From Escherichia phage ukendt, in sequence record NC_052661.1: DNA of 64,000 nt; one strand, given 5' to 3'. The position numbers were made by a program, and so were the translations under genes. This document shows, piece after piece, positions 33,465 through 52,105 of the stretch. Position 1 is the stretch's first letter. Every line of letters starts with the position of its first letter. The notes below the pieces were generated by a model. The model did no database searches. It had not been told where the DNA came from and worked only from the letters and a program-made list of their open reading frames with translations.

Positions 33465-33470
33465 AAGTGG

Positions 33471-34114: not shown

Positions 34115-34131
34115 ATAATTTAGAAAAAGGC

Positions 34132-34188: not shown

Positions 34189-34211
34189 AAAGCAAACGAG
34201 AGGATTACACG

Positions 34212-34330: not shown

Positions 34331-34341
34331 AGGTGCACACC

Positions 34342-34503: not shown

Positions 34504-34512
34504 GGGGATAAC

Positions 34513-34623: not shown

Positions 34624-34624
34624 T

Positions 34625-34682
34625 TTGACAAGTCCGCTTAATCTGATAATATGTATCTTGTAGGGCGGCAATGGTGCCGCTC
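34625..34682 (+). promoter_or_regulatory. cassette promoter + 5' hairpin module
   Basis: TTGACA, 16 nt, TAATAT, then GCGGCAATGGTGCCGC hairpin. Confidence 0.55.
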
Positions 34683-34701
34683 ACAAGAAGAGAGAAAAAT
34701 C

Positions 34702-34986
34702 ATGAAAATCACAAAAAGCCTAACTAATTATGCAGCACGTCGCGGATTATGTTTAACCGTTGAAAACTTAGGGAAAGAAGACTTTTTGTGTTTTTGGGAG
34801 CTTGAAAACGATTGCGAGTGGATGTTTTCCTATTCTATCTGCGAAGATCAAAACGGTTGTTTGTTAACCTGGCGCGGTAATATTTATTTACCGGAAGAAA
34901 TTAAAGAGGAATTACCAGGTACGATCATGACAGAGAGACAGCTTAAGGAAATGATTAATTTTGTAGGGCAAAACATTAAAAAATAA
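34702..34986 (+). CDS. cassette small protein
   Basis: 94 aa; promoter-hairpin module. Confidence 0.5.
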   Translation: MKITKSLTNYAARRGLCLTVENLGKEDFLCFWELENDCEWMFSYSICEDQNGCLLTWRGNIYLPEEIKEELPGTIMTERQLKEMINFVGQNIKK

Positions 34987-34987
34987 T

Positions 34988-35050
34988 TTGACAGCACGCA
35001 AACAACGTAGTAAAGTTTACCACATAGGGCGGCGGAATGGTCCACCGCTC
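34988..35050 (+). promoter_or_regulatory. cassette promoter + 5' hairpin module
   Basis: TTGACA, 17 nt, TAAAGT, then GGGCGGCGGAATGGTCCACCGC hairpin. Confidence 0.55.
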
Positions 35051-35071
35051 ACAACAGAAGAGAAACAAATC

Positions 35072-35242
35072 ATGATCCCGACTATGTTTTATGTATCGCG
35101 CAAAGGTCACAATATTTTTTGGTCTGAAGATTTAAATGAAGCCATGACGTTTGCCCGTGATCGTGTTGCTATCGGTGGCGTTAACATCACCGTAACCGAT
35201 GAAAATGGCATTGAATACTATAACGGCGACGATGAAGAGTAA
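35072..35242 (+). CDS. cassette small protein
   Basis: 56 aa; promoter-hairpin module. Confidence 0.45.
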   Translation: MIPTMFYVSRKGHNIFWSEDLNEAMTFARDRVAIGGVNITVTDENGIEYYNGDDEE

Positions 35243-35249
35243 TTAATGA

Positions 35250-35267
35250 GGCGGGGAGTACCCCGCC
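35250..35267 (+). promoter_or_regulatory. cassette-type GC hairpin without recognisable -35/-10
   Basis: GGCGGGGAGTACCCCGCC, 20 nt upstream of the ATG at 35287. Confidence 0.4.
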
Positions 35268-35286
35268 GTCAATAAAGAGGTAAATC

Positions 35287-35556
35287 ATGAAAATATCATT
35301 GGACGTTGCAATCAAGGCCATCGAATCCGGTTACATCCTGGTAAAAGATGATAAGGCTAAAATAGTGCATCATGTTAACAAGGAAACAGGCGAGAGCATG
35401 ATCACATATAAAGCCGCCTACTTTCTCCAATCAGTAGCAGATCCGCGCGTACAACGCCAGGTTACAGCGGCTATTGCTAAAAAATTATGTGCTTTACAGG
35501 GTGCAAGTTTTAACGAGATTGCCCCGTGTTTTGAGTGGTCAAGCTTGAAAAAATAA
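35287..35556 (+). CDS. cassette small protein
   Basis: 89 aa; preceded by GC hairpin only. Confidence 0.5.
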   Translation: MKISLDVAIKAIESGYILVKDDKAKIVHHVNKETGESMITYKAAYFLQSVADPRVQRQVTAAIAKKLCALQGASFNEIAPCFEWSSLKK

Positions 35557-35557
35557 T

Positions 35558-35619
35558 TTGACAACAATTATAAATCGGGTAGAATGTATTTCGTAGGGCG
35601 GGGCAATAAGGCAACGCCC
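35558..35619 (+). promoter_or_regulatory. cassette promoter + 5' hairpin module
   Basis: TTGACA, 16 nt, TAGAAT, then GGGCG...CGCCC hairpin. Confidence 0.5.
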
Positions 35620-35634
35620 ATTAATGAGGGTAGA

Positions 35635-35742
35635 ATGATGTTAGAGAAAATTTTCACGGTTGTAATAGTGGGCCTGGCGTTATCGGTTGGAGTGGTTGCA
35701 ACTATGGCTAACATGATCCTATCTTCCCACGGTATCGGCTAA
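35635..35742 (+). CDS. cassette hydrophobic peptide
   Basis: 35 aa single TM; promoter-hairpin module. Confidence 0.35.
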   Translation: MMLEKIFTVVIVGLALSVGVVATMANMILSSHGIG

Positions 35743-35752
35743 GGTGAAACAA

Positions 35753-35968
35753 ATGATCACGAATAAGACAGGTAAAACGGAATTTTTACGCGGCTTGCAA
35801 GTTGGTAAACCTGAGATCTGGCATTGTACTAAATCCGCGCATAATGAAATGAAAGATTTTACCGCTACTTTACAACGTGTTAAAATATCTATCACACAGA
35901 AAAAAGCCTTGTTAGTAGTAGAAAACGAGATCCCGCAAACTATTATTATTGTCGAGCGTACAGCATGA
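35753..35968 (+). CDS. cassette small protein
   Basis: Start refined to ATG 35753. Confidence 0.45.
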   Translation: MITNKTGKTEFLRGLQVGKPEIWHCTKSAHNEMKDFTATLQRVKISITQKKALLVVENEIPQTIIIVERTA

Positions 35969-36351
35969 AAACAGAAATCATTATTGAAATCATCAACGGT
36001 TATAAAGAAGCCTTTATTTTTGCTGAATCAGCAAGGGATCATGAAGGTAATTTTATTGAAAACTTAGACGATTATGATTTTTCTCCTAGCGCGGACGAAC
36101 GGATCGCCCAGGATGTAACAGCCTTTATTAATGCTAATCTTGCCGCTATCTCTGAGGCAATGAGCGACGGCGCAACAGCCAACCAGATCGGGAATGATTT
36201 ACATTTTACCCGTAACGGTCACGGCGTAGGCTTTTGGGATCGCCCTGAAATATACACCACTAACACGGCGAACCGCCTAACCAATGCAGCTAAGTTTATG
36301 CCGAACGTGTCGGCTTACATTGGTGAAGATAATTTGATTTATATTGAATAA
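35965..36351 (+). CDS. cassette small protein
   Basis: 128 aa; translationally coupled. Confidence 0.5.
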   Translation: MKTEIIIEIINGYKEAFIFAESARDHEGNFIENLDDYDFSPSADERIAQDVTAFINANLAAISEAMSDGATANQIGNDLHFTRNGHGVGFWDRPEIYTTNTANRLTNAAKFMPNVSAYIGEDNLIYIE

Positions 36352-36357
36352 AAAGTA

Positions 36358-36415
36358 TTGACACAGATCGCCAGTGTGCTAATATTTACCACGTAGGGCG
36401 GCAATGGTGCCGCCG
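36358..36415 (+). promoter_or_regulatory. cassette promoter + 5' hairpin module
   Basis: TTGACA, 16 nt, TAATAT, then GGCGGCAATGGTGCCGCC hairpin. Confidence 0.55.
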
Positions 36416-36432
36416 ATAATGAGGAAAGTAAA

Positions 36433-38864: not shown

Positions 38865-39002
38865 AAATAATAGTCTGCTTGTCATGAGCGGGATTAGTTG
38901 ACAATGTTCCGTCATATGATGAAGTTGCCAAACCATTGATAAATAAGTGTTTGTGTGATTTATAATCAAGTGGCCCACCTTGTCGCTATGTTGGCATGAG
39001 CC

Positions 39003-39044
39003 TTGCATAAGTCATTGAATACGAATGATAATTATTCTCATTCG
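39003..39044 (+). promoter_or_regulatory. promoter with Fur-box-like operator across the -10 (site D)
   Basis: TTGCAT, 17 nt, TGATAAT; palindrome CGAATGATAATTATTCTCATTCG. Confidence 0.5.
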
Positions 39045-39374
39045 CATGATATTTGGGAATTGTCGCTGCGTGGACCTGACGGCCCGAAAATTCGCGTTAA
39101 GCACTTCTTACGTATGCGCCATGATTTTTGCCATATGATATTGATTCTATTAGATATTCTTGCCATGAAACAAGGTGTGTCGAAATAATCTCTCCCCGTA
39201 GATATTTTGGGTTACTTTTTATACAAGAGTGGGGTGTCAAAAATAATCGGTATATATGGGATAATTGATAGGAATCCCCTATGGTAATTCGATTGTAATT
39301 CCTTAAGATTGATCGTATGATGTTGGTGATTGATGATTGCCATGAAAGATGGCTAACGATGAGAGGAGATTGTC

Positions 39375-39749
39375 ATGCAAGAGAGTAAAAATATTCCGTT
39401 GAGTAGTGCAACATTGCTTCGCTTCTATAAAGCATGGATTGCCAACTATCCTGCAATGAATCGCACAACGAGTGGCTTATGTGGTTGTCTGGTAGATTAT
39501 GTAGATGATTTTGTTGGTGAGACAACTAGAGAAGAAGATAGAAGATGGCGTGATCATTTGTTGGACCGTTTGAAATATGAAATGAGGAAACAATTTACAT
39601 GTGCAGGGCTGGACTACAATCTTCCGTTCAATGCAGATTGCATGGATTACCTTTCAGAGTGTATAAACTTGGCGTGTCATACCAACACGTTACGTCTTCA
39701 ATGGGTGAAAGATCGGATTGAAGATGCAAATAATGCTTGCATTGAATAA
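39375..39749 (+). CDS. family A paralog (WVKDR motif)
   Basis: 124 aa; GLCxxL...LPF...RLQWVKDRI shared with four other ORFs. Confidence 0.55.
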   Translation: MQESKNIPLSSATLLRFYKAWIANYPAMNRTTSGLCGCLVDYVDDFVGETTREEDRRWRDHLLDRLKYEMRKQFTCAGLDYNLPFNADCMDYLSECINLACHTNTLRLQWVKDRIEDANNACIE

Positions 39750-39798
39750 AGATGTTTGTATAATGGATGACATAACAGATAGCCAATGAGGAGATGAA

Positions 39799-40008
39799 AT
39801 GAAGAATTTGAAAACTGTCACAATGTTCTTGACTGATCCTACACGTGTGCAAGCACTGGCTAAAGCCAGCCGTGTAGCTGTAGAATTCCAAAACTTTAAG
39901 CCGTCCGTTGTGACAGGCAGTGAAACGTGTGTTATCGATTTCATTAACGAATACTTCCGAGGGAATCCGGTTGGTCGTTACTTTATTAAGGGTCTGAAGG
40001 ATGCATAA
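39799..40008 (+). CDS. hypothetical protein
   Basis: 69 aa; RBS GAGGAG. Confidence 0.5.
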   Translation: MKNLKTVTMFLTDPTRVQALAKASRVAVEFQNFKPSVVTGSETCVIDFINEYFRGNPVGRYFIKGLKDA

Positions 40009-40231
40009 CATGAAACGCATGAAAATTCGTATTGAGAATGGTGGTGGTTATAAAGGATTGGCACATGCAAAATTTCCACTTGTGTTGGAAGCTACAGTGG
40101 AATACAGTGGGCTTGCTCATGTGCGATTCTCGAAGATGATGGAAGTGCAGGAATGGTTTTGGGACGAGATAGATGCACGAGAAGGAGAAGATTATGTTTT
40201 CTTTCCTCACGAATATAACATTGTCTATTAA
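40001..40231 (+). CDS. family B paralog (EGxDYVFF motif)
   Basis: 76 aa; WFWDE...EGEDYVFF shared with 44336..44557. Confidence 0.5.
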   Translation: MHNMKRMKIRIENGGGYKGLAHAKFPLVLEATVEYSGLAHVRFSKMMEVQEWFWDEIDAREGEDYVFFPHEYNIVY

Positions 40232-40243
40232 AGGTTGTGTGCA

Positions 40244-40483
40244 ATGATCACACCACAACAGAATGAAGCAGCAATGGATCTTCTTGATAGTTTGTATTTC
40301 GATAATTGGTACTCTGAATGTGAATGGATGAATGTGCAAACTCTGAAAGAGAAGACAGAAGCGTTGATTACCGTAGATCAATTTCTTGCAGAGACGGAAA
40401 GAATGAATTATGATATGGCATCTCGCGCACGACGCGTTTCCATTTTCAATAAAATGTTAGCATTATGGGGAGGTAGAAAATGA
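40244..40483 (+). CDS. hypothetical protein
   Basis: Start refined to ATG 40244. Confidence 0.45.
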   Translation: MITPQQNEAAMDLLDSLYFDNWYSECEWMNVQTLKEKTEALITVDQFLAETERMNYDMASRARRVSIFNKMLALWGGRK

Positions 40484-40941
40484 GACAATTCACTATACTG
40501 GCAGCTTATGTGCAATGTGTTCACGACTATGTTAGTGCTCATACAGGTGTGCTGGAAGTTACCAGTAAAATTGAAGGTAATATGGGTACTGTCTGTGTGC
40601 AACATACTTTATCCAATGTGCCGTTTAAAGTGTTCACTGTTGTAGCTGCCGATTACAATCGTGTAGATGTGCGTTTCTTGGATCATAATTTTCGTAACGC
40701 ACTAGATAATATCGAAGATTATCTTCCCGTGAAACCTTTGTCATTTCCACCGAGTCGTGCAAATAATGTAGTGACAAACCTTAATGAAAGGAATGTGGCT
40801 ATGCACAAAAAAGTTCGTCAATTGAAAATGCTGATGGAAATGCAAGAAGAGATTGAAAAAGAACTGAAAGAAGATTTCGGTATGCTTCCAAAAGACGCTT
40901 TGAAATGGTATGATGAACTAGGAGGAGAAAGTTATGAATAA
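40480..40941 (+). CDS. hypothetical protein
   Basis: 153 aa ORF. Confidence 0.5.
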   Translation: MRQFTILAAYVQCVHDYVSAHTGVLEVTSKIEGNMGTVCVQHTLSNVPFKVFTVVAADYNRVDVRFLDHNFRNALDNIEDYLPVKPLSFPPSRANNVVTNLNERNVAMHKKVRQLKMLMEMQEEIEKELKEDFGMLPKDALKWYDELGGESYE

Positions 40942-41128
40942 AGGAACTACTGTATATTTAGTGACTAAGAACACCCCAGGTTGGAATCAGTGCACAACAA
41001 CTCCATATAAAGTCTGTGCAACACTGGAATTAGCACAACGTGCAGAAGCAGAAGTTGATGCTATGCAATACAGCTACGGTGAAATCATTCCTTTTACTCT
41101 TGAACAAGAAGGAGCACATCATGTTTAA
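40934..41128 (+). CDS. hypothetical protein
   Basis: 64 aa ORF. Confidence 0.45.
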   Translation: MNKGTTVYLVTKNTPGWNQCTTTPYKVCATLELAQRAEAEVDAMQYSYGEIIPFTLEQEGAHHV

Positions 41129-41906
41129 AGTAGGTTTTGTTTATAATTTCAAATCGGAAGATACCAAAAAGAATTTTGGTAAAGCCAGTATTCGTAACGC
41201 TTTCTTTGTAGGTTGCATTCAAGATAGTAAGTTTAAAGTTTTAGATGTTGATTTTCTAGGTTCTGTGTCAAAGGTGAAGGTATTAGACACAAATAAGATC
41301 ATCGAAGGTAGTTCTGGGCTTTTTCCTGAAGGCTATAAGCTTGTAAGTTGTATAGATTATAGTCGTTTTGAAGAACATCCTCCTGAAGATTATGAGGATT
41401 CTCCTACAGGAGGTTGTGTCTTTGTAGAAGGTGGTGTCTATAAGTTTGCAAGTGAACAAGATCGTAAGCTTTTCGCCAATTATATTGACGGCGGACAAAC
41501 GACAAACAATGTAAACCGAAAAATTTCCGATCTTATTGGCGATGATCCTTTCGTGATCACAAAGATGGTTGGACAAGATGTAACAGCAATCCGTAGGCTT
41601 GTATGTAATACAAATCATGTAGCAGGTGAAGGTTGGTTCAAGGAAGCTTGTGCGCTGCTAATCAAAAGTGATAACCCTTATTTTAAAAATATTAAAGATG
41701 TTGTTGAGCCTAAACAAGAGGAACCCGCAGCGAATTTTAAACACTATGCTATTGTTAAAGGTATGAATGTCCAACTGGTGTCACATTCTTACGAAGAGAT
41801 CGCCACAGAAGCAAAAAAGATGAAGGAAGAATACCCAATTTCTACTGTTGAGATCTATGAGCGTATTGGTGTTGTTAGTATTGAGCCTACTGCGGTAATA
41901 AAATAA
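41121..41906 (+). CDS. hypothetical protein (MFKV family)
   Basis: Start refined to ATG 41121; N-terminus MFKVGFVYNFKS paralogous to 41916..42353. Confidence 0.5.
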   Translation: MFKVGFVYNFKSEDTKKNFGKASIRNAFFVGCIQDSKFKVLDVDFLGSVSKVKVLDTNKIIEGSSGLFPEGYKLVSCIDYSRFEEHPPEDYEDSPTGGCVFVEGGVYKFASEQDRKLFANYIDGGQTTNNVNRKISDLIGDDPFVITKMVGQDVTAIRRLVCNTNHVAGEGWFKEACALLIKSDNPYFKNIKDVVEPKQEEPAANFKHYAIVKGMNVQLVSHSYEEIATEAKKMKEEYPISTVEIYERIGVVSIEPTAVIK

Positions 41907-41915
41907 GGAGCTATT

Positions 41916-42353
41916 ATGTTCAAAGTTAATGCTGTTTACTGTTTCAAAAGCAAAGCTGCATGTGAAGCTTTCTCTATGATCTCTGATGAAAATTTCAAAA
42001 TGGCAGCTTTGATTGAAGGGTCTTGTTTCCGCGTCGAAGATGTTAGTGAATCAGGGTCTGTTTGCTCATTGACTTTATTGGACAGCGGAGATATTATTGA
42101 AGCTGGACAGTATCCGTTCAGAAGTTGGGAGATATTGTTAGCTCGCGGAGAGCGTAACTTTTTTATGTGCGTGTCTGCGGGGGAAGTTGTGAAAGAAACT
42201 AAGGATGTTTCTGTTTACAATTCTGAATTTATAAGTTATAGTGAGTATCAACATCTGGAAGGCATTGTTGGTCACTTGTTATCTCTGATTGACATTGAAT
42301 GTGACTTGCCTGAATCATTGAAAGAAGAGTTGAAAGCATTAGATCTGCTGTAA
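41916..42353 (+). CDS. hypothetical protein (MFKV family)
   Basis: 145 aa; N-terminus MFKVNAVYCFKS. Confidence 0.5.
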   Translation: MFKVNAVYCFKSKAACEAFSMISDENFKMAALIEGSCFRVEDVSESGSVCSLTLLDSGDIIEAGQYPFRSWEILLARGERNFFMCVSAGEVVKETKDVSVYNSEFISYSEYQHLEGIVGHLLSLIDIECDLPESLKEELKALDLL

Positions 42354-42380
42354 TGTTCCGCACAACGAAAGGAGAATAAA

Positions 42381-42680
42381 ATGAATCTGACCGAACAGTT
42401 ACGCCGTATTGCAAAAGAAGCTTCCTTCAACTTCCCTGTTGAAGAAGTGATCGAGACATGTTTTGCTGAAGCACGAGCGGGAAACTCTTCAAGAAATTTC
42501 ACGCCATCTGATTTTGGTCTGGATAATTCCCCTACCCACCCAGGGGAGATCTACAATCAGGTGAAGTGGATGGATGAAGCAGTAGCAATTCTTCGTGAGC
42601 GTGGGCTTATTGTTTATAAAGAAATGGATCTGAACGGGGCATACGAGTGGATCACTATTGATTGGTCGGAGGTGAAATAA
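42381..42680 (+). CDS. hypothetical protein
   Basis: 99 aa; RBS AAAGGAG. Confidence 0.5.
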   Translation: MNLTEQLRRIAKEASFNFPVEEVIETCFAEARAGNSSRNFTPSDFGLDNSPTHPGEIYNQVKWMDEAVAILRERGLIVYKEMDLNGAYEWITIDWSEVK

Positions 42681-42889
42681 TGGTTACTATCACATTGACA
42701 GTTACACAAGAGCAAGCAGAAGAATTACGTGATGCAGTGGCATACATGGGACGCTCTTATTATATGCCTTATAAATCACAAGATGTTTTTGCTACAGCCA
42801 TTGAGAAAGCTTTAAACAAATATCGAGAAACTCATGCCGTTCCTAAAGTATCAGCAGAAGAGTTTGGCACTTGGCACGAAGTTAACTAA
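42680..42889 (+). CDS. hypothetical protein
   Basis: Start refined to ATG 42680. Confidence 0.45.
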   Translation: MVTITLTVTQEQAEELRDAVAYMGRSYYMPYKSQDVFATAIEKALNKYRETHAVPKVSAEEFGTWHEVN

Positions 42890-42899
42890 GGAGGTATCG

Positions 42900-43133
42900 A
42901 TGAAAGGTAACAAGATGAAAGTTAATCAGGTACCGAGTGCATACACTTTGTGGCTTGCGCGAGCGTTACACCAGACGATCAAAAATCCTAAGAAGCCAAT
43001 GAAGAGTGGGAAGAAGTTTATGTCTAAGGGCAAAACAACCTTTGGCTTCACTCGTATGTCTGTTAAGATGGAAAGGCTGGGGTACAAGCCAAACTACGCT
43101 CGTTACCCTTCCGAATACAACTGGTTTGACTAA
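42900..43133 (+). CDS. hypothetical basic protein
   Basis: Start refined to ATG 42900 after AAGGAGG. Confidence 0.45.
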   Translation: MKGNKMKVNQVPSAYTLWLARALHQTIKNPKKPMKSGKKFMSKGKTTFGFTRMSVKMERLGYKPNYARYPSEYNWFD

Positions 43134-43148
43134 AGAGGAGAACAAAAC

Positions 43149-43433
43149 ATGAAAACATCTATTCGCGTGAAACATGATCCGAACAGCAGTTACCCATACG
43201 TGTATGTTGAACGTCATGAAGGGGACTATTACACCATAAAACGTAAAGTCCCAACTGACACAGGGTTTAACTTCGATGTTATCGCACTGGATGATCAAGG
43301 TGTTGATAATCTGGTGAATGCATTACTCGCATTGAAGGAAGTACGACATGAAAATCAGACTAAAGGTAAAGTGGCTTTCGATTCTTGTGATCGTTTAGCC
43401 GAAGAGATTGCCGAATGGCGTGATACTCACTAA
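43149..43433 (+). CDS. hypothetical protein
   Basis: 94 aa; RBS AGAGGAG. Confidence 0.5.
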   Translation: MKTSIRVKHDPNSSYPYVYVERHEGDYYTIKRKVPTDTGFNFDVIALDDQGVDNLVNALLALKEVRHENQTKGKVAFDSCDRLAEEIAEWRDTH

Positions 43434-43448
43434 AACAGGAGAAAGATT

Positions 43449-43625
43449 ATGGCTACTTTTCAACAACTCAAAGATGTTTCACGTTTAGTAAGAAAAATCC
43501 GAGAAGCAGACGCTGCTGTGCGGAATGCATTAACGCCAGCAGAGCGTGAAGATCTTGAAGAGGAGGTGAAAACAGCCGAGAATGCTTTTGCTGCGTATCT
43601 TTCAACACTGTACACAGGAGGTTAA
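43449..43625 (+). CDS. hypothetical small protein
   Basis: 58 aa ORF not in track; RBS CAGGAGA. Confidence 0.35.
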   Translation: MATFQQLKDVSRLVRKIREADAAVRNALTPAEREDLEEEVKTAENAFAAYLSTLYTGG

Positions 43626-43940
43626 ATGTCAGAAGAACTTAAAGAATTTTATCAGGCATATCATAACTGGCTGTTAGCTGGTGCTCCAGATAATAATCCT
43701 TTCTGGCACGATAAAGGGTTATGTAGTTGCCTCTACCTTTGGACTGGTGGTTACGATGATCTAAATTATGAAATGCAAATGCAATTTCGAGAAGCAGGGT
43801 TGTCTGAAGAATACCCGTTTGATGACGGGGACAGGTTTAAATATGATTTTGCACAAAGAAACGGGCTGCTACATTTGAATGCTGCCCGTATAAAATGGGT
43901 AAAAGATCATGCTACACAGGAGGATGTGCAATGCCTATAG
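43626..43940 (+). CDS. family A paralog (WVKDR motif)
   Basis: 104 aa; WLLAGAPDNNPF...GLCSCL...RIKWVKDH. Confidence 0.55.
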   Translation: MSEELKEFYQAYHNWLLAGAPDNNPFWHDKGLCSCLYLWTGGYDDLNYEMQMQFREAGLSEEYPFDDGDRFKYDFAQRNGLLHLNAARIKWVKDHATQEDVQCL

Positions 43941-44131
43941 TGTTTGTTTTCTTGGCGATTGTTATTGTAGTTCTTTTCGCTGCATGGCTTTGGGATTTTG
44001 ACCCAGGAGCCGCGCAGCAAAGAGCTACAGACTTGAAAGAACAATGTATTGTGCTCAAACATGAACGAAATGCGGAGAAATTTCTTGACCTGGAGTGTGA
44101 TCGCCTTGTAAGATACAAGCAAGATAAATAA
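43931..44131 (+). CDS. small membrane protein
   Basis: Start refined to ATG 43931 (MPIVFVFLAIVIVVLF). Confidence 0.45.
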   Translation: MPIVFVFLAIVIVVLFAAWLWDFDPGAAQQRATDLKEQCIVLKHERNAEKFLDLECDRLVRYKQDK

Positions 44132-44145
44132 CCTTGAGGTGCAAA

Positions 44146-44334
44146 ATGGTAATTGAGATTAAACTTGAATATGCTGGGGCTGTTGCCTTGATCGCACAAA
44201 TGCTTGGAGCAAAGATTGAAGAAGTGTATATCAATGCCTGGAGCGTAGAGATTGATGTTCCTATGGATAACATTGCTAATCGCTTGCTGGTAGCAGAGTG
44301 TGAACGCACCAACATAATCTACAAAGGAGCATAA
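44146..44334 (+). CDS. hypothetical protein
   Basis: Start refined to ATG 44146. Confidence 0.45.
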   Translation: MVIEIKLEYAGAVALIAQMLGAKIEEVYINAWSVEIDVPMDNIANRLLVAECERTNIIYKGA

Positions 44335-44335
44335 T

Positions 44336-44557
44336 ATGAAAATTAGAGTTTGTGATGTATTGGGTTATGTTGGTTTTGAGAATGTTCAGATTCCTTTTGT
44401 TGTTGAAGCACATCTTGTTAGCGATGATATGACAACATTCTTTGTTACGATAGAAGAAATGTCTAAAGTTGAGGGATGGGAGTGGTTTGAAGAAGATGTT
44501 TGGGAAGGTTGTGATTACGTATTTTTCTCTGACGAAGTGAATGTTCTTTCGGAGTAG
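44336..44557 (+). CDS. family B paralog (EGxDYVFF motif)
   Basis: 73 aa; WEWFEEDVWEGCDYVFF. Confidence 0.5.
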   Translation: MKIRVCDVLGYVGFENVQIPFVVEAHLVSDDMTTFFVTIEEMSKVEGWEWFEEDVWEGCDYVFFSDEVNVLSE

Positions 44558-44559
44558 GT

Positions 44560-44766
44560 ATGTCTTGTTTTACAAAAGCAGTGTCCATATGTAAGAAACA
44601 GTATGAAAGTGATTACGGAATATTTAATCTTCCAGTGGATCATACGGAGTATTGTTCATGTGGTGGCAGGATGAAGAAAACAGTGATTTATGCGGATAAT
44701 GGAGATGAACTTGTTCCGGTTATGGTTTGCAAAGCTTGTCATTCTGTTAAAACATTAAAAGCGTAA
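44560..44766 (+). CDS. zinc-ribbon small protein
   Basis: 68 aa; CSCGG...CKAC. Confidence 0.45.
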   Translation: MSCFTKAVSICKKQYESDYGIFNLPVDHTEYCSCGGRMKKTVIYADNGDELVPVMVCKACHSVKTLKA

Positions 44767-44861
44767 GGAGTCGGGACACCCGACGATTGGAGCTAAAAAT
44801 TTTGCGTACAACCCTTTCCGCCCAACAGGGGCGCGTCGGGTAAATAAAGAGGAGAGTTTAT

Positions 44862-45260
44862 ATGAAAAAGATCATCGTAGGTTTCTTGTTACTCATTGCA
44901 TCACTTGGAACAGCAAGTGCGTCTCAAGTTTATGAGTGTGTGTCAGATGTGGTTGTTAAAAATCTGAAAGGTGAAGTGATTTCTGGTCCTAAGAAAATGG
45001 CTTCTGTTATCATTAATAAAGATAACTCCTTTATCCTTAAAAATTCGGGTGGTGCTTTGATGAGTGGCATTCTGCAATACACAGGAGAAAAAAGTAAAGA
45101 TGGTAGTGCTATGTACGGTTCACAACAGTTTATTGGCACTACTGAAGTTGTGATGATGCGCACAGAGTATCGAGACACTTTGGCTTGGTTTGCATTTCTA
45201 AAAAATGATAAAACAATAACGAATGTTCTTACTCTAGAAGCTGATTGCACGCAACGATAA
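44862..45260 (+). CDS. secreted protein
   Basis: 132 aa; signal peptide MKKIIVGFLLLIASLGTASA. Confidence 0.5.
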   Translation: MKKIIVGFLLLIASLGTASASQVYECVSDVVVKNLKGEVISGPKKMASVIINKDNSFILKNSGGALMSGILQYTGEKSKDGSAMYGSQQFIGTTEVVMMRTEYRDTLAWFAFLKNDKTITNVLTLEADCTQR

Positions 45261-45269
45261 GGGGTATTT

Positions 45270-45716
45270 ATGACTAAAATGAGACATTATGCTGTAAACT
45301 GTAACGATGTTTGGCGTTTGTGTCCTGATGATCCGACAGAAGGCACATTTGTAAGATATGAGGATTATAAAGAGTTATCAGATGCTGTGATCGCATTGTT
45401 AACTGATATCCGTTCACGTTATCCAGGACAAGATTTCACTTGCCCTCACATCAAACTTCTTGCTTGTCTGGTAGAAGGTGAGAAAGAAGTGGAAGATGGC
45501 TTCAAGCGTGTAGAGTATCAAGGTGAAACTTTAGAGGTTCCTGAATTTGTTAATTATATTGCAACAGATTCGAGTGGCGAGCGTTATGGCTACAGCCATA
45601 AGCCAGAGATTCCTGATTGGATTCCCGCTTGGAGATATTCCGTTAGTACCGGAGACTATATCTTCCTTGGTGTAGGTAGTAGTAAGGATTGGCGTTTCTC
45701 TTTGACAGAGGTTTAA
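45270..45716 (+). CDS. hypothetical protein
   Basis: 148 aa ORF. Confidence 0.5.
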   Translation: MTKMRHYAVNCNDVWRLCPDDPTEGTFVRYEDYKELSDAVIALLTDIRSRYPGQDFTCPHIKLLACLVEGEKEVEDGFKRVEYQGETLEVPEFVNYIATDSSGERYGYSHKPEIPDWIPAWRYSVSTGDYIFLGVGSSKDWRFSLTEV

Positions 45717-45720
45717 TAAT

Positions 45721-45984
45721 ATGAAAGAGACATTGCCAGCAGCATACCGTTTGAATGATGAACGTATTTGGGAGTGGACCGACGTTTCTTGTTTTTACCC
45801 TGAAATAGTTCAATATTGGCGAGCGAAAGGGTGTGTTGTAGTTATCAACCCTTGTGGACCAGTAGATGAAGATTGCTTGTATCTCGATGGAAAGTGGCAC
45901 AGTTATTGTCGCTGGCCTTTTGAGTGGATGTGTAAAGAAGATCTCCCAGAGGGTTGGGAGTATCCAAAAGCAAATAGGAGATAA
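45721..45984 (+). CDS. hypothetical protein
   Basis: 87 aa ORF. Confidence 0.5.
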   Translation: MKETLPAAYRLNDERIWEWTDVSCFYPEIVQYWRAKGCVVVINPCGPVDEDCLYLDGKWHSYCRWPFEWMCKEDLPEGWEYPKANRR

Positions 45985-45985
45985 T

Positions 45986-46348
45986 ATGTCTAAAGATTTT
46001 GTTGAAGTGTTTGTCAAAGACGAAGAAACTGGTTTAGGCACAGGTTTCATTTGTGAAGAAACCTTTAAGCGTGAACAAGAAAAAGCTATTCTTATGCGAA
46101 ACTATGATCACGCATTAGAACAATGGAAAAATGCAGAACAAAAATGCAAAAACCTTTATGCAGAAAATAGAAAACTACAAGATCAAATGGAGTTGTTAGC
46201 TATCAGTTTACGATCTCTCATTTTGGCTGTAGAAGATGGTTTTAAAAATCCAGATGGTTTTCCTGTGAGCGATATTGAACATGATTTGTATCTTGCTCGT
46301 GGTGCTTACTTTTATGTTAAACAGAAGTCTGTAGAAGGAGAGAAGTGA
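45986..46348 (+). CDS. hypothetical coiled-coil protein
   Basis: Start refined to ATG 45986 after AGGAGA. Confidence 0.45.
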   Translation: MSKDFVEVFVKDEETGLGTGFICEETFKREQEKAILMRNYDHALEQWKNAEQKCKNLYAENRKLQDQMELLAISLRSLILAVEDGFKNPDGFPVSDIEHDLYLARGAYFYVKQKSVEGEK

Positions 46349-46545
46349 TGGAAGAAAAACTGGAACGTATTATCGAGTTAGCCATGTCTATTGGCTACGA
46401 CGATTGTTTTATCCAAACTATTGGAGAAACACAGAACGATTACGACTCTTGGGTGAAAGAGTTGGAAGAACTCAAAACTTCCTTGATTGCTGACTTTGCT
46501 GAAGCAGAGGATAAAGCAGATCGTTACAACTATCTGTGTCGATAA
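46345..46545 (+). CDS. hypothetical protein
   Basis: 66 aa ORF. Confidence 0.45.
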   Translation: MMEEKLERIIELAMSIGYDDCFIQTIGETQNDYDSWVKELEELKTSLIADFAEAEDKADRYNYLCR

Positions 46546-46607
46546 ACCTTGACATTTATTTTATGTATGGTATACATACATTATCAACGTGAGCAAGGTG
46601 GTGTAAT

Positions 46608-46880
46608 ATGAATAAAGATCGGTTTCTTTCTTTAGTCGCGGAAGCGCCTTTTGATGTTCTTGGGGTGAGATTATGGAAAGACAGAAACTATGGGTTAGAT
46701 GTTCAAACATATTCTCTTTGGTTGGTTGGGGAGCACAGCTTAGATGAAAGCTTGTGCATGGGTAGGGATTCTCGTTCCCTTTGTTTAAAGTTCAGAAGCT
46801 TAGAACGCGCAAACAAAGAGCAAGAAAAACTAACGAGGTGGCTAAATGAAAACAAGCACAGGGTTGATGGAGTTTTATAA
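46608..46880 (+). CDS. hypothetical protein
   Basis: 90 aa ORF. Confidence 0.5.
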   Translation: MNKDRFLSLVAEAPFDVLGVRLWKDRNYGLDVQTYSLWLVGEHSLDESLCMGRDSRSLCLKFRSLERANKEQEKLTRWLNENKHRVDGVL

Positions 46881-47172
46881 AATTTATCTAGCATGGATTG
46901 ATGTTGGTGCTCCTGATGGTAAACCTTTTCGGCGGGATTGTGGTTTGTGTGCCAACTTGTTCGATTATGTGCACAGAGGTAATTACAACCCCATTATAAC
47001 AACCTTGTCAGATGAAATGCACGCACAGTTTTACCATAAAGGGTTGAATCAAGGACTCCCTTTCAATGAGAACTACGATGCATATGTCTTAGAGTCAGAT
47101 GCAGATGCCTGTCACCTGAACGTGGACAGAATTAATTGGGTAAGAGATCGTATTGCAGAGGAGGATGAATAA
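46846..47172 (+). CDS. family A paralog (WVKDR motif)
   Basis: 108 aa; WIDVGAPDGKPF...GLCANL...RINWVRDRI. Confidence 0.55.
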   Translation: MKTSTGLMEFYKIYLAWIDVGAPDGKPFRRDCGLCANLFDYVHRGNYNPIITTLSDEMHAQFYHKGLNQGLPFNENYDAYVLESDADACHLNVDRINWVRDRIAEEDE

Positions 47173-47399
47173 TGTCGGATTATAACTGGTATGAACTTGA
47201 AGCTGTTTGTCAGTTTTATGATTCAATAGTTCTACGTGATCCAATCTGTCAAGAATTGAGTCGCCGTGCAAGTGCATTGGCAATCCGTGTTAAAATAAAT
47301 GGTTGGAACCCAGACTTGGAAAAAGAGTTGGAATTTCTCTTAGAAACAACACGTGTCTTCCACAAAGTGTTCCCTGAATGGTTCGAGATGGAAGAATGA
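47172..47399 (+). CDS. hypothetical protein
   Basis: 75 aa ORF. Confidence 0.5.
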   Translation: MSDYNWYELEAVCQFYDSIVLRDPICQELSRRASALAIRVKINGWNPDLEKELEFLLETTRVFHKVFPEWFEMEE

Positions 47400-47401
47400 T
47401 C

Positions 47402-47617
47402 ATGTGGATTGTACGTCTTAAATATGATGGCCCTGATCCTTGGGTGCATAACGTTTGCGGTTGTGATTCCGAAGAAGCAGCACATAAAGCAGGAAGAGCA
47501 GTAAGTGCCTTCTATAATGACAAACCTTTTTGTTTAGAAATGGCAGGTGTGGTTTGTATGAGCATGTTCGAATACTACTCTTATGAAATCAAAGAACACC
47601 AAGGGGAATGGAAATAA
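47402..47617 (+). CDS. hypothetical protein
   Basis: Start refined to ATG 47402. Confidence 0.45.
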   Translation: MWIVRLKYDGPDPWVHNVCGCDSEEAAHKAGRAVSAFYNDKPFCLEMAGVVCMSMFEYYSYEIKEHQGEWK

Positions 47618-47679
47618 ATCGTTGACAGAAGGATCTGTCTTTGTCATAATCATCTCATCGAAACAAAGAGGAGAAAATC

Positions 47680-48093
47680 ATGAAAAAGTTTATTTGCACC
47701 CGTTCCACTAACAGTGATATCCTTGTAGGTAAGGTTATCAAAGGAGAACTCTTCCATGCAAATGGTAAGAAATATATTCTGCTGAAAGATTCTTTCAACG
47801 GGGAATATCCGCGCTGCACTTTCTTCAATTACAACACTCCATTTGCTTTAGAAGGAGATGCTTGGGAATGGGCTGAACTCAATCCTTGTTATGAGGAAGA
47901 AGAATCTATGTTCTTAGGTTTAAACGTTTACCGTGTAGATTACACCATGTGCGGAGCGGAACATTCTGTTCGCGTAGAAGCCGAATCCAAACTACAAGCA
48001 CCTTTCAAGGCAGGATTGACTTTGGGTCATTGTTTGGCAAACATTGAAGATGTTGTGATCCAAAGAGTTGTTTTAGAGAAAGAGGCTATTTGA
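47680..48093 (+). CDS. hypothetical protein
   Basis: 137 aa; RBS GAGGAG. Confidence 0.5.
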   Translation: MKKFICTRSTNSDILVGKVIKGELFHANGKKYILLKDSFNGEYPRCTFFNYNTPFALEGDAWEWAELNPCYEEEESMFLGLNVYRVDYTMCGAEHSVRVEAESKLQAPFKAGLTLGHCLANIEDVVIQRVVLEKEAI

Positions 48094-48147
48094 CAGAAGA
48101 CGGTACAATATTTAAAATATAAAGATTAACCACAAAAGGAGAGAAAC

Positions 48148-48447
48148 ATGCAAGTTGAAGACCTGATCAAGATTCTGAATAAAGCCAAAGAGAAGGGTGC
48201 TATCAAAGACTGGAAACGTGAAACAAGTGAAGATTTATCTCATTGTTGTCGAGAATTTTACATTGAAGGTATTGCTAACGATCATTATACTATTGAATGG
48301 TATATTAACTTAATGACTCTTAAACACGGTTCATTTGAGGTTTGGTTTGATGACATTGATGTAAATGGTTTTCATCCTGGCTATAAAATCGCTATGCAGT
48401 TATCTTATCGTAGAGAAGTTGTAGCACATTTGGGTTTACATAACTAA
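48148..48447 (+). CDS. hypothetical protein
   Basis: 99 aa; RBS AAGGAGAG. Confidence 0.5.
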   Translation: MQVEDLIKILNKAKEKGAIKDWKRETSEDLSHCCREFYIEGIANDHYTIEWYINLMTLKHGSFEVWFDDIDVNGFHPGYKIAMQLSYRREVVAHLGLHN

Positions 48448-48457
48448 GGAGAAAAGA

Positions 48458-48781
48458 ATGCAAGCAGTTGTTAACGAAGCTATTATGAACTTATCCTTCT
48501 TGTTAGCTGGTTTAGGAGGTGTTCTCATAGGTTTGGCTCTTATCTGGTGTATTCGTCGATTAATCGGGTACCGACAAAAAGGTGTTTCATGTTTTGTATC
48601 TTACAATTTTACAACTGCTTACAGCAATGAGGTTGGATCTGGTAATGCTCAAGCATTTTTACCAACATATCCTCCTACGGTGGAAGATATTCGAAACTTG
48701 GAAGTAGAACTTATGGGACTAAGTGATAACTATACATCTCTCGTTATTCAAAATATTTTTCGACTAAAACAGGAGGCGTGA
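48458..48781 (+). CDS. membrane protein
   Basis: 107 aa; N-terminal TM segment. Confidence 0.5.
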   Translation: MQAVVNEAIMNLSFLLAGLGGVLIGLALIWCIRRLIGYRQKGVSCFVSYNFTTAYSNEVGSGNAQAFLPTYPPTVEDIRNLEVELMGLSDNYTSLVIQNIFRLKQEA

Positions 48782-48994
48782 ATGAAGGCACATTACCCTC
48801 ATCCCTTTGATCCTAAAAACAAAGCCGTAATTCTTCGTCAGTGGCAACGGGTTTGTCGTACTAAATGTCCAATTAATAGCCAACACAATGTGGACAAGGA
48901 TTATCTTGGGACATTTGTTGAATACACTTACATAGACAAAAACAAGCGTAAACAACATGTCGAGGAATACTGCTTAAAAGTAGAATGGCTGTAA
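48782..48994 (+). CDS. hypothetical protein
   Basis: 70 aa ORF. Confidence 0.45.
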   Translation: MKAHYPHPFDPKNKAVILRQWQRVCRTKCPINSQHNVDKDYLGTFVEYTYIDKNKRKQHVEEYCLKVEWL

Positions 48995-49064
48995 ATAATA
49001 AATACCTTGACAAGTGTTTATTCGTTTTGTAAAGTGAGAATACAGCAATGGTTTAGGAGTGGTT

Positions 49065-49736
49065 ATGAAAAAGTTTGTTGTTTACAGTCGTCTTTCTAAA
49101 CAGAAAAAAGGTGAGGCACAATATGGTATGGAGAGCCAAGAGAACGATATCCGTTACTTCTTAGACTCTGTGCCTGACGCTGAAGTTATTGGTCAATTTT
49201 CTGAATACTATTCGGGTAAGGGCGATTGGAAGCAACGTAAGGAACTGGTTAAAGCGGTTGAAATGTGTAAAGCTACCGGAGCAACTTTATTGGTAGCTAA
49301 AGTTGACCGCTTGGGTCGTAACAACGCCTCCGTAGCAACTCTCCTAGAAATGATCGATGTTAAGATAGCCATCATGCCAGACGCAGATAAAATGGTTATA
49401 CAGCTTCTGTCTGTTTTGGCTGAACAAGAAGTTAGAGGTATTGCTGATCGTATTAAAAAGGGTCTTGCTGTAGCAAAAAGCAAAGGTGTTTTATTAGGCA
49501 GTGCTAATCCTAAAACTGCCGCTGCACGTAGAAAAGGAAAAATGGAATACAACTCTGTTAAAGCAGACGCTTTTGCAGAGACATTCCGTGAACGCTTGGA
49601 GATCCTTAGAGATTTAAATACACCTTACAAAACTATTGCTGAAAAATTTAATAGTAAGAAAATAGCAACAGCACGTGGTGGTAAATGGGATGCTAAGACT
49701 GTTTCTCGTTTGTGTGCCAGACTGAACATTAAATAG
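49065..49736 (+). CDS. serine recombinase (resolvase/invertase family)
   Basis: Catalytic-region motifs VVYSRLS and VAKVDRLGRN; C-terminal HTH-like segment; start refined to ATG 49065. Confidence 0.6.
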   Translation: MKKFVVYSRLSKQKKGEAQYGMESQENDIRYFLDSVPDAEVIGQFSEYYSGKGDWKQRKELVKAVEMCKATGATLLVAKVDRLGRNNASVATLLEMIDVKIAIMPDADKMVIQLLSVLAEQEVRGIADRIKKGLAVAKSKGVLLGSANPKTAAARRKGKMEYNSVKADAFAETFRERLEILRDLNTPYKTIAEKFNSKKIATARGGKWDAKTVSRLCARLNIK

Positions 49737-49744
49737 GAGAGGAT

Positions 49745-50167
49745 ATGAAACAAGAAAATGAATCTGTAGATCACTTAATCATGCTGTCAGCCCTTTTTGC
49801 AGGATGGGACGTATTTTTTGAAAATTTGTTCAATTCTGCTACAGATGGTTCCGATTTTATGCGCCAGTTTAAACGACGAACTGTTGAGGACTATGCTTTC
49901 TATTCAGGTCGGATTGAAAAAGGTTACGAAGATACAAATACAACACTCACCATTAAAGTTTTAGATGTGATGTTTAGTGTTATAGATGCTATCGACGAAA
50001 GTCTTCCGATCCTAGACAATTGTAATACGAAAGCCTATGTTTACAAAATAGCTCGTGCTTATGTGTCTGCAAACAGTTGCCTTCTTTCCACCCAGATTGC
50101 CGTGAACAATCTTGCCAACTTGTTCGATGAAGGAGAAACTTTTTATGACAATCGATTTGAAGTGTAA
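49745..50167 (+). CDS. hypothetical protein
   Basis: 140 aa ORF. Confidence 0.5.
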   Translation: MKQENESVDHLIMLSALFAGWDVFFENLFNSATDGSDFMRQFKRRTVEDYAFYSGRIEKGYEDTNTTLTIKVLDVMFSVIDAIDESLPILDNCNTKAYVYKIARAYVSANSCLLSTQIAVNNLANLFDEGETFYDNRFEV

Positions 50168-50510
50168 GAGGATTCTTTTAGATTTCTATAATAATTGGTT
50201 AGAACACCTCCGTCTCTTTCCAAGAGAAAGTGGTTACGCTGATGTTGGCTTATGCCGAGGTCTACGTATGTATATAAGTGATGAATTTCGGGCCGAGCAT
50301 TCTTTAGCATATTCTGTTTATGGTATGCAATTAGCCAGTTTTGAAAACGCTGGCTTAGATACAACTTTCCCATTTAACACAGCAAAATCTTTTGAGCAAG
50401 AGTGTAAGGAAAAACGTTGCATGTTTAATGAAAAACGTGTACAGTGGGTTAAGGATCGAGTTAAACAACTGGAACAAGAGTTGGATTTCTTCTATGATGA
50501 GGCAGAATAA
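50145..50510 (+). CDS. family A paralog (WVKDR motif)
   Basis: Start refined to ATG 50145; GLCRGL...FPF...RVQWVKDRV. Confidence 0.5.
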   Translation: MTIDLKCKRILLDFYNNWLEHLRLFPRESGYADVGLCRGLRMYISDEFRAEHSLAYSVYGMQLASFENAGLDTTFPFNTAKSFEQECKEKRCMFNEKRVQWVKDRVKQLEQELDFFYDEAE

Positions 50511-50782
50511 TGGATAGACAAACCTTAAAAACAATGGCAGATGCCACTAATTCCCCGTACTTTGAAAAAGTAAGTAAATTGGTAGCTCAAGCCGCAGAGG
50601 AAGGATATTATAACATAAACATCCACAACCCAAGTCTTATACTAGAAATGCCAAGTGATAAGAAGATACAAGAGAGTATCTGTGAAGGTATTGTTAGTTA
50701 CTGGCGCGAGCGTGGGTGTGGTGCAAACATGGCTTTAGACAGTGCAAACATTGTAAGATATATAAATATTTCTTGGGGGTGA
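50510..50782 (+). CDS. hypothetical protein
   Basis: 90 aa ORF. Confidence 0.5.
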   Translation: MDRQTLKTMADATNSPYFEKVSKLVAQAAEEGYYNINIHNPSLILEMPSDKKIQESICEGIVSYWRERGCGANMALDSANIVRYINISWG

Positions 50783-50786
50783 TTTT

Positions 50787-51398
50787 ATGATTCAATGCAC
50801 TCATATCCAAATTACTTGGAGAGATGAACTTTACCATTTGGGACAATTTACTGTAGGGGAAACATACCCTATCATTAAACATAATCCTAACATCGCAAAC
50901 TTTGACAGGATGGTTCTTGTTGAGGACGATCTAGGTCAAACTTATTCTTTAGATCTAAAATATCCGTTTTCTTACGGCTACGATTGGATCGTTACTTTTG
51001 AAGACGTGGAGGAAAATAAAACAATGAACGAAAAAAATTCTTGGTATTATCGTTGTGAACTGCCACCAGTAGGTGAAAAGGTTATCTTTGTCCCTGATTT
51101 GGAAAGATATTCTTGGGACAGTTCTTATTCTGTTCCTAAAGAAGGCACCGAAGTTGAAGTTATTGCACATCGCACAACTTCGCATGGTAACGATGTAGCA
51201 GTTGTTTTCTGGGATGATGAAGGCGCTGCTTGTGCAGGTGGCTTTGTTGCAGGTAATTTTGAACCCCTGCCAGATCCTTTGAAGGAGGCAATTTTAGGCG
51301 TAGCTTCTTTTGGACTCTCTTACACATCTGCACAAGAGATCGTAGAAGGTATTTTAAACGGTACCGTTCCAAACGAAATTTTTAAACAGATTAAATAA
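50787..51398 (+). CDS. hypothetical protein
   Basis: 203 aa; followed by terminator. Confidence 0.5.
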   Translation: MIQCTHIQITWRDELYHLGQFTVGETYPIIKHNPNIANFDRMVLVEDDLGQTYSLDLKYPFSYGYDWIVTFEDVEENKTMNEKNSWYYRCELPPVGEKVIFVPDLERYSWDSSYSVPKEGTEVEVIAHRTTSHGNDVAVVFWDDEGAACAGGFVAGNFEPLPDPLKEAILGVASFGLSYTSAQEIVEGILNGTVPNEIFKQIK

Positions 51399-51404
51399 TA
51401 GTTG

Positions 51405-51430
51405 CACCCCGTTCTGCGGGGTGTTATTGT
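51405..51430 (+). terminator. rho-independent terminator
   Basis: CACCCCG-TTCTG-CGGGGTG followed by a T-rich tract. Confidence 0.5.
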
Positions 51431-51449
51431 ATATGTAAAGGAGGCGCTA

Positions 51450-51788
51450 ATGTATTACACTGAAGACTACATATTGTATAACTTTTTTAAAGGTTGGTTG
51501 AAATGGGCGGAACAAGCTCCTGTCGGAGATTGTGTTTTTCCTTGGGATTCTCGTCAAGGCTTGTGTCGTTGTTTGGAAGATTGGCTTATAACCACAAACT
51601 ACAATTCAGAAACTAAGAAATCTACATCAAACAGATTAAAAATGTTATTTGAAGAAGATGGTTTAGATCCAATTTATCCTTTCGGTGCTGAAAGCTTCCA
51701 CAATAGTCTTTTTCTTGGCACTCAACATTATGACAAAGATCGCGTAGATTGGGTAAAAGAAAAGGTAGCACAGTATGAATGGGGCTAA
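51450..51788 (+). CDS. family A paralog (WVKDR-like motif)
   Basis: Start refined to ATG 51450 after AAAGGAGG; GLCRCL...YPF...RVDWVKEKV. Confidence 0.5.
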   Translation: MYYTEDYILYNFFKGWLKWAEQAPVGDCVFPWDSRQGLCRCLEDWLITTNYNSETKKSTSNRLKMLFEEDGLDPIYPFGAESFHNSLFLGTQHYDKDRVDWVKEKVAQYEWG

Positions 51789-51978
51789 GACTTATCATCG
51801 TTGGTTAGAAAGTTATATTAAGAAATGTGAACTTGGTGTTCCAGGTTATACTTACGACACGGACGAGATTCTTGATGAGATGGAAGTTTGGTTTAAAGAG
51901 CCTCGTGAACTATTGTCAAATATTCTAATGGCTTGGGATGGTACAGCACAAAGCATCGGAGGAGGTAGAAATGAGTAA
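51775..51978 (+). CDS. hypothetical protein
   Basis: 67 aa ORF. Confidence 0.45.
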   Translation: MNGAKTYHRWLESYIKKCELGVPGYTYDTDEILDEMEVWFKEPRELLSNILMAWDGTAQSIGGGRNE

Positions 51979-52105
51979 GAAATTGTTTAATATTCGTGAG
52001 AACCGTGATGGATCGTTCTCTGTAGTTAATGAGTTTAACGTTTCGGTTGGGACTTTTATTACTAAACGTCAAGCAGAACAAGTAAGAGATACTTTAAACA
52101 AGTAA
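51971..52105 (+). CDS. hypothetical small protein
   Basis: 44 aa ORF not in track; RBS GGAGGAGG. Confidence 0.3.
   Translation: MSKKLFNIRENRDGSFSVVNEFNVSVGTFITKRQAEQVRDTLNK

Follow-up and report, generated by a model that had tools for sequence, protein, structure and literature searches.

Within a 64,000-nucleotide stretch of Escherichia phage ukendt (sequence record NC_052661.1), hereafter the window, five small related genes, designated paralogues A to E, are spread over positions 39375–51788 of the plus strand. Paralogue A (39375–39749) encodes a protein of 124 amino acids (aa), follows a GAGGAG ribosome-binding site and is a hybrid gene, as described below. Paralogue B (43626–43940, 104 aa) follows the site AGGAGG; paralogue C (46846–47172, 108 aa) is the copy nearest to the family consensus and the one used for structure modelling; paralogue D (50145–50510, 121 aa) has a ribosome-binding site and the start annotated in relatives; and paralogue E (51450–51788, 112 aa), preceded by AAGGAGG, is the most divergent. 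A Shine-Dalgarno sequence accompanies every start, and all five starts agree with the annotation of close relatives. The five plus-strand open reading frames (ORFs) of 104–124 aa listed by an earlier sequence-only reading were recovered at the same positions and lengths. The encoded proteins are cytoplasmic and acidic (isoelectric points of 4.6–5.3), show no evident transmembrane or signal sequence, and are labelled "hypothetical protein" in all records of relatives examined.

Nucleotide comparison gave 97–98% identity between this region and Escherichia phages of the genus Phapecoctavirus, which assigns the window to a phAPEC8-like E. coli myovirus of that genus (Stephanstirmvirinae), with genomes of about 150 kb. 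All five genes are held in a plus-strand block of approximately 100 small ORFs that occupies 34 kb (22–56 kb). The records of five Campylobacter phages (B15 among them) and of Acinetobacter phage vB_AbaM_ABPW7 also match window positions 39000–52000 at 92–98% nucleotide identity, and a homologue 81.5% identical to paralogue C occurs in a record named Pseudomonas phage PsgM04F; the host names of these records look doubtful.

Pairwise BLASTP comparisons of the five proteins returned identities of 24–39% (E values of 5e-18 to 2e-3), and their alignment contains 16 invariant columns, including G-L-C, P-F, R and W-V. In a leave-one-out test, a hidden Markov model (HMM) profile built from four copies was searched against the 1,065 six-frame ORFs of the window; the omitted copy was recovered at E values from 4e-14 (paralogue E) to 1e-23, while the best unrelated ORF scored 0.2 or higher. 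The five genes constitute the largest paralogous family within the window, and a five-copy HMM run against all six frames detected no sixth copy in the 64 kb. The claim of a shared family therefore holds, supported by these leave-one-out scores and by five independent matches to one protein group, whereas the motifs first proposed for it required some adjustment. GLCxxL is found in all five copies, as is the LPF/YPF element in the form (L/Y/F)PF. The W(L/I)xxGAP motif is strict in B and C but not in A, D or E. At the C-terminus, R-x-x-W-V is common to all five, but the narrower form R(I/V) fails in A, which reads RLQWV, and E ends in WVKEK instead of WVKD(R/H/K).

All five proteins matched phrog_2510, a PHROG of unknown function, in hmmscan searches (E values of 1e-25 to 8e-32; individually 2e-25 for A, 4e-29 for B, 8e-32 for C, 2e-26 for D and 1e-26 for E), with weaker matches to phrog_6418, phrog_27059 and phrog_2176. 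Each aligns over its whole length to the N-terminal half of the 219-position phrog_2510 profile, a length explained by members with two tandem domains, which were also found here. The same family includes gp3 of coliphage N4 (ABK54374; EF056009 1214–1528), which shares 32% identity with paralogue C over 93% of its length (tblastn, E 3e-7). As a query, N4 gp3 finds the Phapecoctavirus copies in return (E 2e-8), and an HMM of the window copies and their relatives hits it at E 5e-17. It is of the same length and carries the same GLC, PFN and NxxRxxW signature; N4 has a single copy of the gene, whereas the window phage has five. Profile and reciprocal sequence searches thus establish A to E as members of the PHROG 2510/N4 gp3 family. 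No reported function for N4 gp3 was found in the literature searched, and the link consequently suggests a likely early expression class rather than a mechanism.

A profile search of 1.84 billion cluster representatives (clusters at 50% identity) retrieved 1,507 clusters at E ≤ 1e-3 and 523 at E ≤ 1e-10, most of the matches being 100–125 aa long. The sequences listed include 18 two-domain tandem fusions and one three-domain fusion, the latter from jumbo phage BcepSaruman; a second, word-indexed protein search with a broad profile added little and revealed no fusion to known domains. By tblastn against 50,697 phage records, the family was located at 629 places in 255 records, including N4, N4-like phages of Achromobacter, Erwinia, Klebsiella, Delftia and Rhizobium, T7-like Ralstonia phages, T1-like phages and phi92/rV5-like myoviruses. 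One P1-like E. coli plasmid also carries it. The hosts of these carriers are Proteobacteria throughout, and the family is absent from most phages.

Annotation resources contributed no functional assignment. Pfam and NCBIfam models did not match A to E, a Pfam scan of 124 family members yielded no family common to more than one of them, and a PADLOC scan of A to E returned only a chance-level PifA match (E 0.02, 11 bits) that fell short of a defence-model call. No homologue bore a function label in the records or source names examined, and nothing relevant emerged from literature searches on PHROG 2510, the motif, N4 gp3, and Phapecoctavirus paralogues or transcriptomes. Bas11 Gp54, the CapRel trigger of Drexlerviridae, was considered as a member and excluded as a 66-aa beta-barrel. 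The genes themselves were already on deposit as hypothetical proteins and assigned to a PHROG, whose record captures neither their multi-copy state nor the conserved Cys/Arg signature. The new element is that an N4 gp3-like family is recognised here as very large, uncharacterised and marked by that distinctive signature, that it has no structural neighbour and that it has undergone a lineage-specific expansion to 5–10 copies.

An AlphaFold2 model of paralogue C, built from a 23-sequence alignment, predicts a five-helix bundle with helices at residues 5–19, 34–42, 50–64, 77–85 and 93–107 (numbering of paralogue C throughout; predicted local distance difference test score, pLDDT, 91; predicted template modelling score, pTM, 0.85). 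Foldseek retrieved the same fold solely in uncharacterised phage proteins. The Protein Data Bank (PDB) contained no sequence match to either a 5-sequence or a 124-sequence profile, and a fold search with the family model found no neighbour there. A natural two-domain protein of Citrobacter phage Tr1 was also modelled, to see whether single-domain members might act as obligate dimers; its domains each reached a pLDDT of 89, and their mutual packing is uncertain (pTM 0.60).

Conservation, computed over 124–205 diverse domains with a mean column identity of 22%, is focused on the helix cores and on a set of polar residues. C35, P72, F73 and R95 are invariant across the family, with C35 present in 203 of 203 aligned domains and R95 in 203 of 205. 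L7, F10, Y11, G33, L34, Q61, F62, L67, N92, W98 and V99 are conserved at 90% or above, and E57, N74, Y80, E83 and H90 at 70–82%, giving a family signature of (G)LC ... PF(N) ... N-x-x-R-x-x-WV. All five paralogues keep C35, PF and R95, and N92 is kept in A to D and replaced by Asp in E. Paralogue D has lost E57, Q61 and H90, and paralogue E has lost E57, Q61, N74 and E83. Segments 20–32, 43–56 and 75–89 are hypervariable and rich in insertions and deletions. In the model, the conserved polar residues share helical faces with core residues and thus probably point inward, and N92 and G33 occupy helix N-cap positions, where their role could be purely structural. As to the suggestion of the sequence-only reading that the proteins may target variable host factors, the very strong family-wide conservation of the Cys/Arg polar site argues that function is at least partly common to the members rather than wholly variable. 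A zinc site formed by C35, C37, C89 and H90 was considered and rejected, as was a zinc-binding small domain more generally: C35 is the only candidate ligand in 35 of 205 domains and the sole invariant one, and 25 domains hold a single Cys in total.

The number of family genes differs among related phages. The window phage and vB_Ec-G1 have five; phAPEC8_ev052 and Schickermooser have six, the extra copy, A0, lying directly upstream of A and overlapping it; and Mt1B1_P17, ECO340P1 and ESCO13 have seven, consisting of the same set with A0 and a further copy, of type F or G, between C and D. Citrobacter phage Tr1 carries 8 genes (9 domains) in about 12 kb, and a metagenomic relative carries at least 9 genes (10 domains) in 12.6 kb, including an array of six contiguous genes, one of which is a two-domain fusion. 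Across Stephanstirmvirinae, genomes contain 5–10 family domains. The A0 gene, present in phAPEC8_ev052, Schickermooser, Mt1B1_P17, ESCO13 and ECO340P1, accounts for the hybrid nature of paralogue A in the window: its 5' untranslated region and first six codons come from A0, followed by the body of A, and the junction falls in an IPLSS-coding stretch common to both genes (nucleotide alignment with phAPEC8_ev052; window 39375–39404 against L002 1385–1745). Homologous recombination between the two tandem genes removed A0 whole and cleanly, with paralogue A as the product.

Neighbour-joining trees with 200 bootstraps place the origin of the five copies further back. They were monophyletic in 0 of 200 bootstraps, and B paired with P0086, a protein of a T1-like siphovirus (OL539467.1) and its nearest non-orthologue at 48.5% identity, apart from the other four in 162 of 200. 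A and A0 (47% identity) clustered in 158 bootstraps and C and F (53%) in 131; only these two pairs look like duplications within the lineage. Neighbours in arrays are just 37–43% identical, no same-genome pair above 53% identity was seen even in tandem arrays, and the repertoires of Tr1 and of Phapecoctavirus lack one-to-one orthology. No repeats of the kind that flank mobile cassettes were found, the only DNA repeat recurring at the gene copies (four of them, B to E) being the stretch that encodes WVKD. On these tree and identity data, the five copies are best described as five old, distinct subfamilies of a multigene family that expands and contracts.

Within the genus, each of A to E was found in all six relatives examined. 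The ratios of nonsynonymous to synonymous substitution rates (dN/dS) of the orthologues (A, 0.11; B, 0.03; C, 0.36; D, 0.04; E, 0.07) have a median of 0.07, compared with 0.10 in 36 genes nearby (Mann-Whitney p = 0.46), and the orthologues are thus under purifying selection. Retention of every paralogue in all six relatives at low dN/dS points to non-redundant, selected functions. The proposal of repeated duplication in the sequence-only reading survives insofar as this is a multigene family with changing copy number (5–7 in the genus), fusions and a documented deletion of A0. Its implication of a recent or ongoing burst of duplication and diversification in place finds no support, given the absence of monophyly, the affinity of B for a T1-like protein and the low identity of array neighbours, and the dN/dS check that it suggested revealed no diversifying selection.

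Genomic position offers a further clue. In podoviruses the family gene lies within the first 1–6 kb of the genome, as in N4 (at 1214), the N4-like phages of Achromobacter, Erwinia, Klebsiella and Delftia, and the T7-like Ralstonia phage RSB1. N4 gp3 is located in the left-end region between gp1/gp2 and gp15/gp16, which are early genes (PMC4496689). In the window, the five genes lie downstream of 14 sigma70 promoter cassettes, which end at 36.4 kb. These are marked by TAGGGCGG, which occurs on the plus strand at 28450–36422 in 14 copies against 0.43 expected by chance, each within a cassette composed of an A-rich tract, TTGACA, a 17-nucleotide (nt) spacer, TAnnAT, a conserved GC-rich hairpin (GGGCGGC...GCCGC), a ribosome-binding site and a small ORF. 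The cassettes resemble an array of strong early promoters of the sigma70 type, which would give the transcript a conserved 5' stem-loop. Near-consensus sigma70-like matches also occur in intergenic gaps at 47622, 48090 and 49007. On the plus strand at 51404–51424, between the gene at 50787–51398 and paralogue E and 25 nt before the start of E, lies a terminator-like GC-rich hairpin with a T-rich tail; phage Schickermooser has a terminator annotated at this site. Gene position and the sigma70-like matches suggest, on positional grounds, that A to E may be expressed early.

Taken together, we tentatively favour, at somewhat under an even chance, the view that A to E act in the infected cell as host-takeover or counter-defence proteins. 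All paralogues would share one conserved scaffold, whose polar site (the invariant Cys35 and Arg95 and usually Glu57, Gln61 and Asn92) would carry a common activity or contact, while the hypervariable loops at 20–32, 43–56 and 75–89 would give each paralogue a different partner specificity. Such loop-based specificity would account for the retention of several non-redundant copies and for the turnover of repertoires between phage genera. Consistent with this proposal are the early-entering position in podoviruses and the homologue among the early genes of N4, the location within a block of small accessory genes, the fact that the proteins are themselves small, acidic and soluble, the gain, loss and fusion of copies, and the presence of several old, individually conserved subfamilies per genome. 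Several findings weigh against it: none of the 14 early-promoter cassettes lies inside 39–52 kb; no family member is tied to a host target or defence system by experiment or by an annotated homologue; PADLOC, Pfam and NCBIfam gave no hits and solved anti-defence proteins show no likeness in fold; and positive selection, which an active arms race might leave, was not seen among close orthologues. Furthermore, the invariance of the Cys (100%) and Arg (99%) is no less expected of an enzyme or cofactor site than of a binding scaffold. A broader and more speculative form of the host-takeover proposal, which we regard as possible but doubtful, is that the N4 gp3-like domain represents an unrecognised fold with its own Cys/Arg-centred activity, elaborated in Stephanstirmvirinae into a multigene family of 5–10 specialised effectors against host immunity or physiology.

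The strongest competing explanation, itself rather unlikely, is that the family is a small enzyme, or a module that binds a ligand or cofactor, relying on the invariant Cys at the N-terminal end of helix 2. Cys35 would then act with Arg95, Asn92, Glu57 and Gln61 on one conserved substrate, possibly a nucleotide-derived signal, a modified nucleic acid or a host protein side chain, and the copies with degenerate sites, D and E, would be regulatory or partner subunits. Nucleophilic cysteines are often found at helix N-termini, and C35 sits at such a position. The near-complete conservation of C35 and R95 fits this explanation, as do the 81–91% conservation of N92, Q61 and E57 against the low mean column identity, the inferred inward orientation of the polar residues on core-side helical faces, and the retention of C, PF, N and R in every domain of the two- and three-domain fusions. 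However, an all-helical domain of about 100 aa is unlike any known enzyme fold, position 90 carries His in just 70% of domains, with Tyr, Trp or Phe in the remainder, and D, E and many N-terminal domains of fusions have lost E57 and Q61. The pattern of a zinc site is likewise missing, and with N92 and G33 at N-caps and P72-F73 in a loop, several of the "invariants" may be purely structural. The takeover and enzymatic explanations could be compatible, with the shared site supplying an activity and the loops its targeting.

Less probable is a role in the phage's own programme rather than against host factors, for example as accessory factors for transcription, replication or DNA entry, or as chaperones for other early proteins. 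The wide differences in lifestyle and transcription among carriers, which range from N4-, T7-, T1- and rV5/phi92-like phages to jumbo phage BcepSaruman and a P1-like plasmid, can be read in its favour, as can the purifying selection and retention of A to E in every close relative. A range of 1–10 copies and full repertoire turnover between genera of one subfamily would nevertheless be unusual for a core function; in addition, the gene is missing from most phages and has no conserved neighbouring gene across loci.

A quite improbable and largely refuted account holds that the five copies arose by recent repeated duplication in this genome and diverged fast under the positive selection of an arms race. 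The variation in copy number among close relatives (extra A0, F and G), the resemblance of A/A0 and C/F to lineage-local duplicates and the dN/dS of C, the highest of the five, are what it can draw on; against it stand the 24–39% identity and consistent non-monophyly of the copies, the grouping of B with a T1-like phage protein, the observed 53% ceiling on same-genome identity and dN/dS values not above those of neighbouring genes. Chance likeness among unrelated small ORFs is refuted by the leave-one-out E values, by the independent matches of all five to phrog_2510 and by the WVKD-coding stretch as the sole DNA repeat family recurring at the copies, with no point found to support it.

The surroundings of the family contain several other recognisable features. 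The small-gene block is bounded by a minus-strand block at 1–21 kb devoted to nucleotide metabolism (NrdD, ribonucleotide reductase and a helicase) and by another beyond 56 kb. On its flanks lie, also on the minus strand, a protein of the "tellurite resistance" type (2376–3488; phrog_5890, E 3e-139) and a Sir2-like NAD-dependent deacetylase homologue (56566–57366; phrog_2162, E 2e-97), the latter belonging to the second block. In the middle of the small-gene block, a plus-strand gene at 49065–49736 encodes a serine recombinase or DNA invertase (phrog_125, E 3e-32). Its orthologue is named "methionine ABC transporter ATP-binding protein" in several GenBank records, an apparent mis-annotation, and seems truncated in phage Schickermooser. 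Just upstream of the cassette region, two AT-rich direct repeats of 72 nt (27473–27682, plus strand) lie 138 nt apart and are 82% identical. No Rfam family was detected within the 64-kb window.

Two further gene pairs on the plus strand are related to each other. The genes at 40010–40231 and 44336–44557 encode proteins of 73 aa each with 37.5% identity (E 7e-12) and the common C-terminal motif (E)W(E/F)W(F)..(E)D..(E)G.DYVFF..E.N. The adjacent genes at 41121–41906 and 41916–42353 share an N-terminal domain (41% identity over 70 aa), and both begin MFKV..Y.FKS. Orthologues of this 41121–42353 pair are labelled "goF mRNA metabolism modulator" in some GenBank relatives, with weak and partial PHROG backing (E 4e-7 and 4e-6). 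As the label in relatives belongs to these genes, it was rejected as a name for the family of A to E.

The family is of interest for several reasons. It comprises about 1,500 clusters and counts a gene of the model phage N4 among its members, yet lacks a Pfam model, a solved structure, a structural neighbour and a function; its Cys/Arg signature, together with the 5–10 copies in one subfamily, makes it a well-defined and tractable target. Should the counter-defence interpretation prove correct, a widespread new class of about 1,500 clusters across phages of Proteobacteria would be added to those known, and if the proteins are enzymes, a new small fold would be added. There is also practical value, in that Phapecoctaviruses are used in therapeutic cocktails and A to E make up a sixth of a 12-kb accessory block.

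Among known systems, the small early anti-defence proteins of phages, such as Ocr, ArdA, Acb2, Tad1/Tad2 and the anti-CRISPRs, offer one point of comparison. Like the family described here, they are small and acidic, occupy early-entering or accessory positions, are patchily spread and are frequently gained and lost. The Ocr/ArdA fold with its strongly negative, DNA-like surface was not found in the family, and neither profile sequence searches nor fold searches of the PDB returned the Acb2, Tad1 or Tad2 sponges. A second comparison concerns the SUKH/Imm immunity arrays of polymorphic toxin systems and the multigene families of large eukaryotic DNA viruses, which are characterised by tandem diverged paralogues, fusions and repertoire turnover. 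None of the 124 family members matched a Pfam Imm or SUKH model, and no toxin gene adjoined the family at any locus examined, the neighbours being small hypothetical phage genes. All tests of membership in these groups by sequence or fold failed, and the likeness to anti-defence, immunity-array and eukaryotic-virus families is limited to genome behaviour. At that level, the N4 gp3-like family shares with the immunity arrays and eukaryotic-virus families its diverged tandem arrays, fused copies and turnover, and if its members indeed form a family of specialised effectors, they would parallel, in phages, the multigene families known from large eukaryotic viruses.

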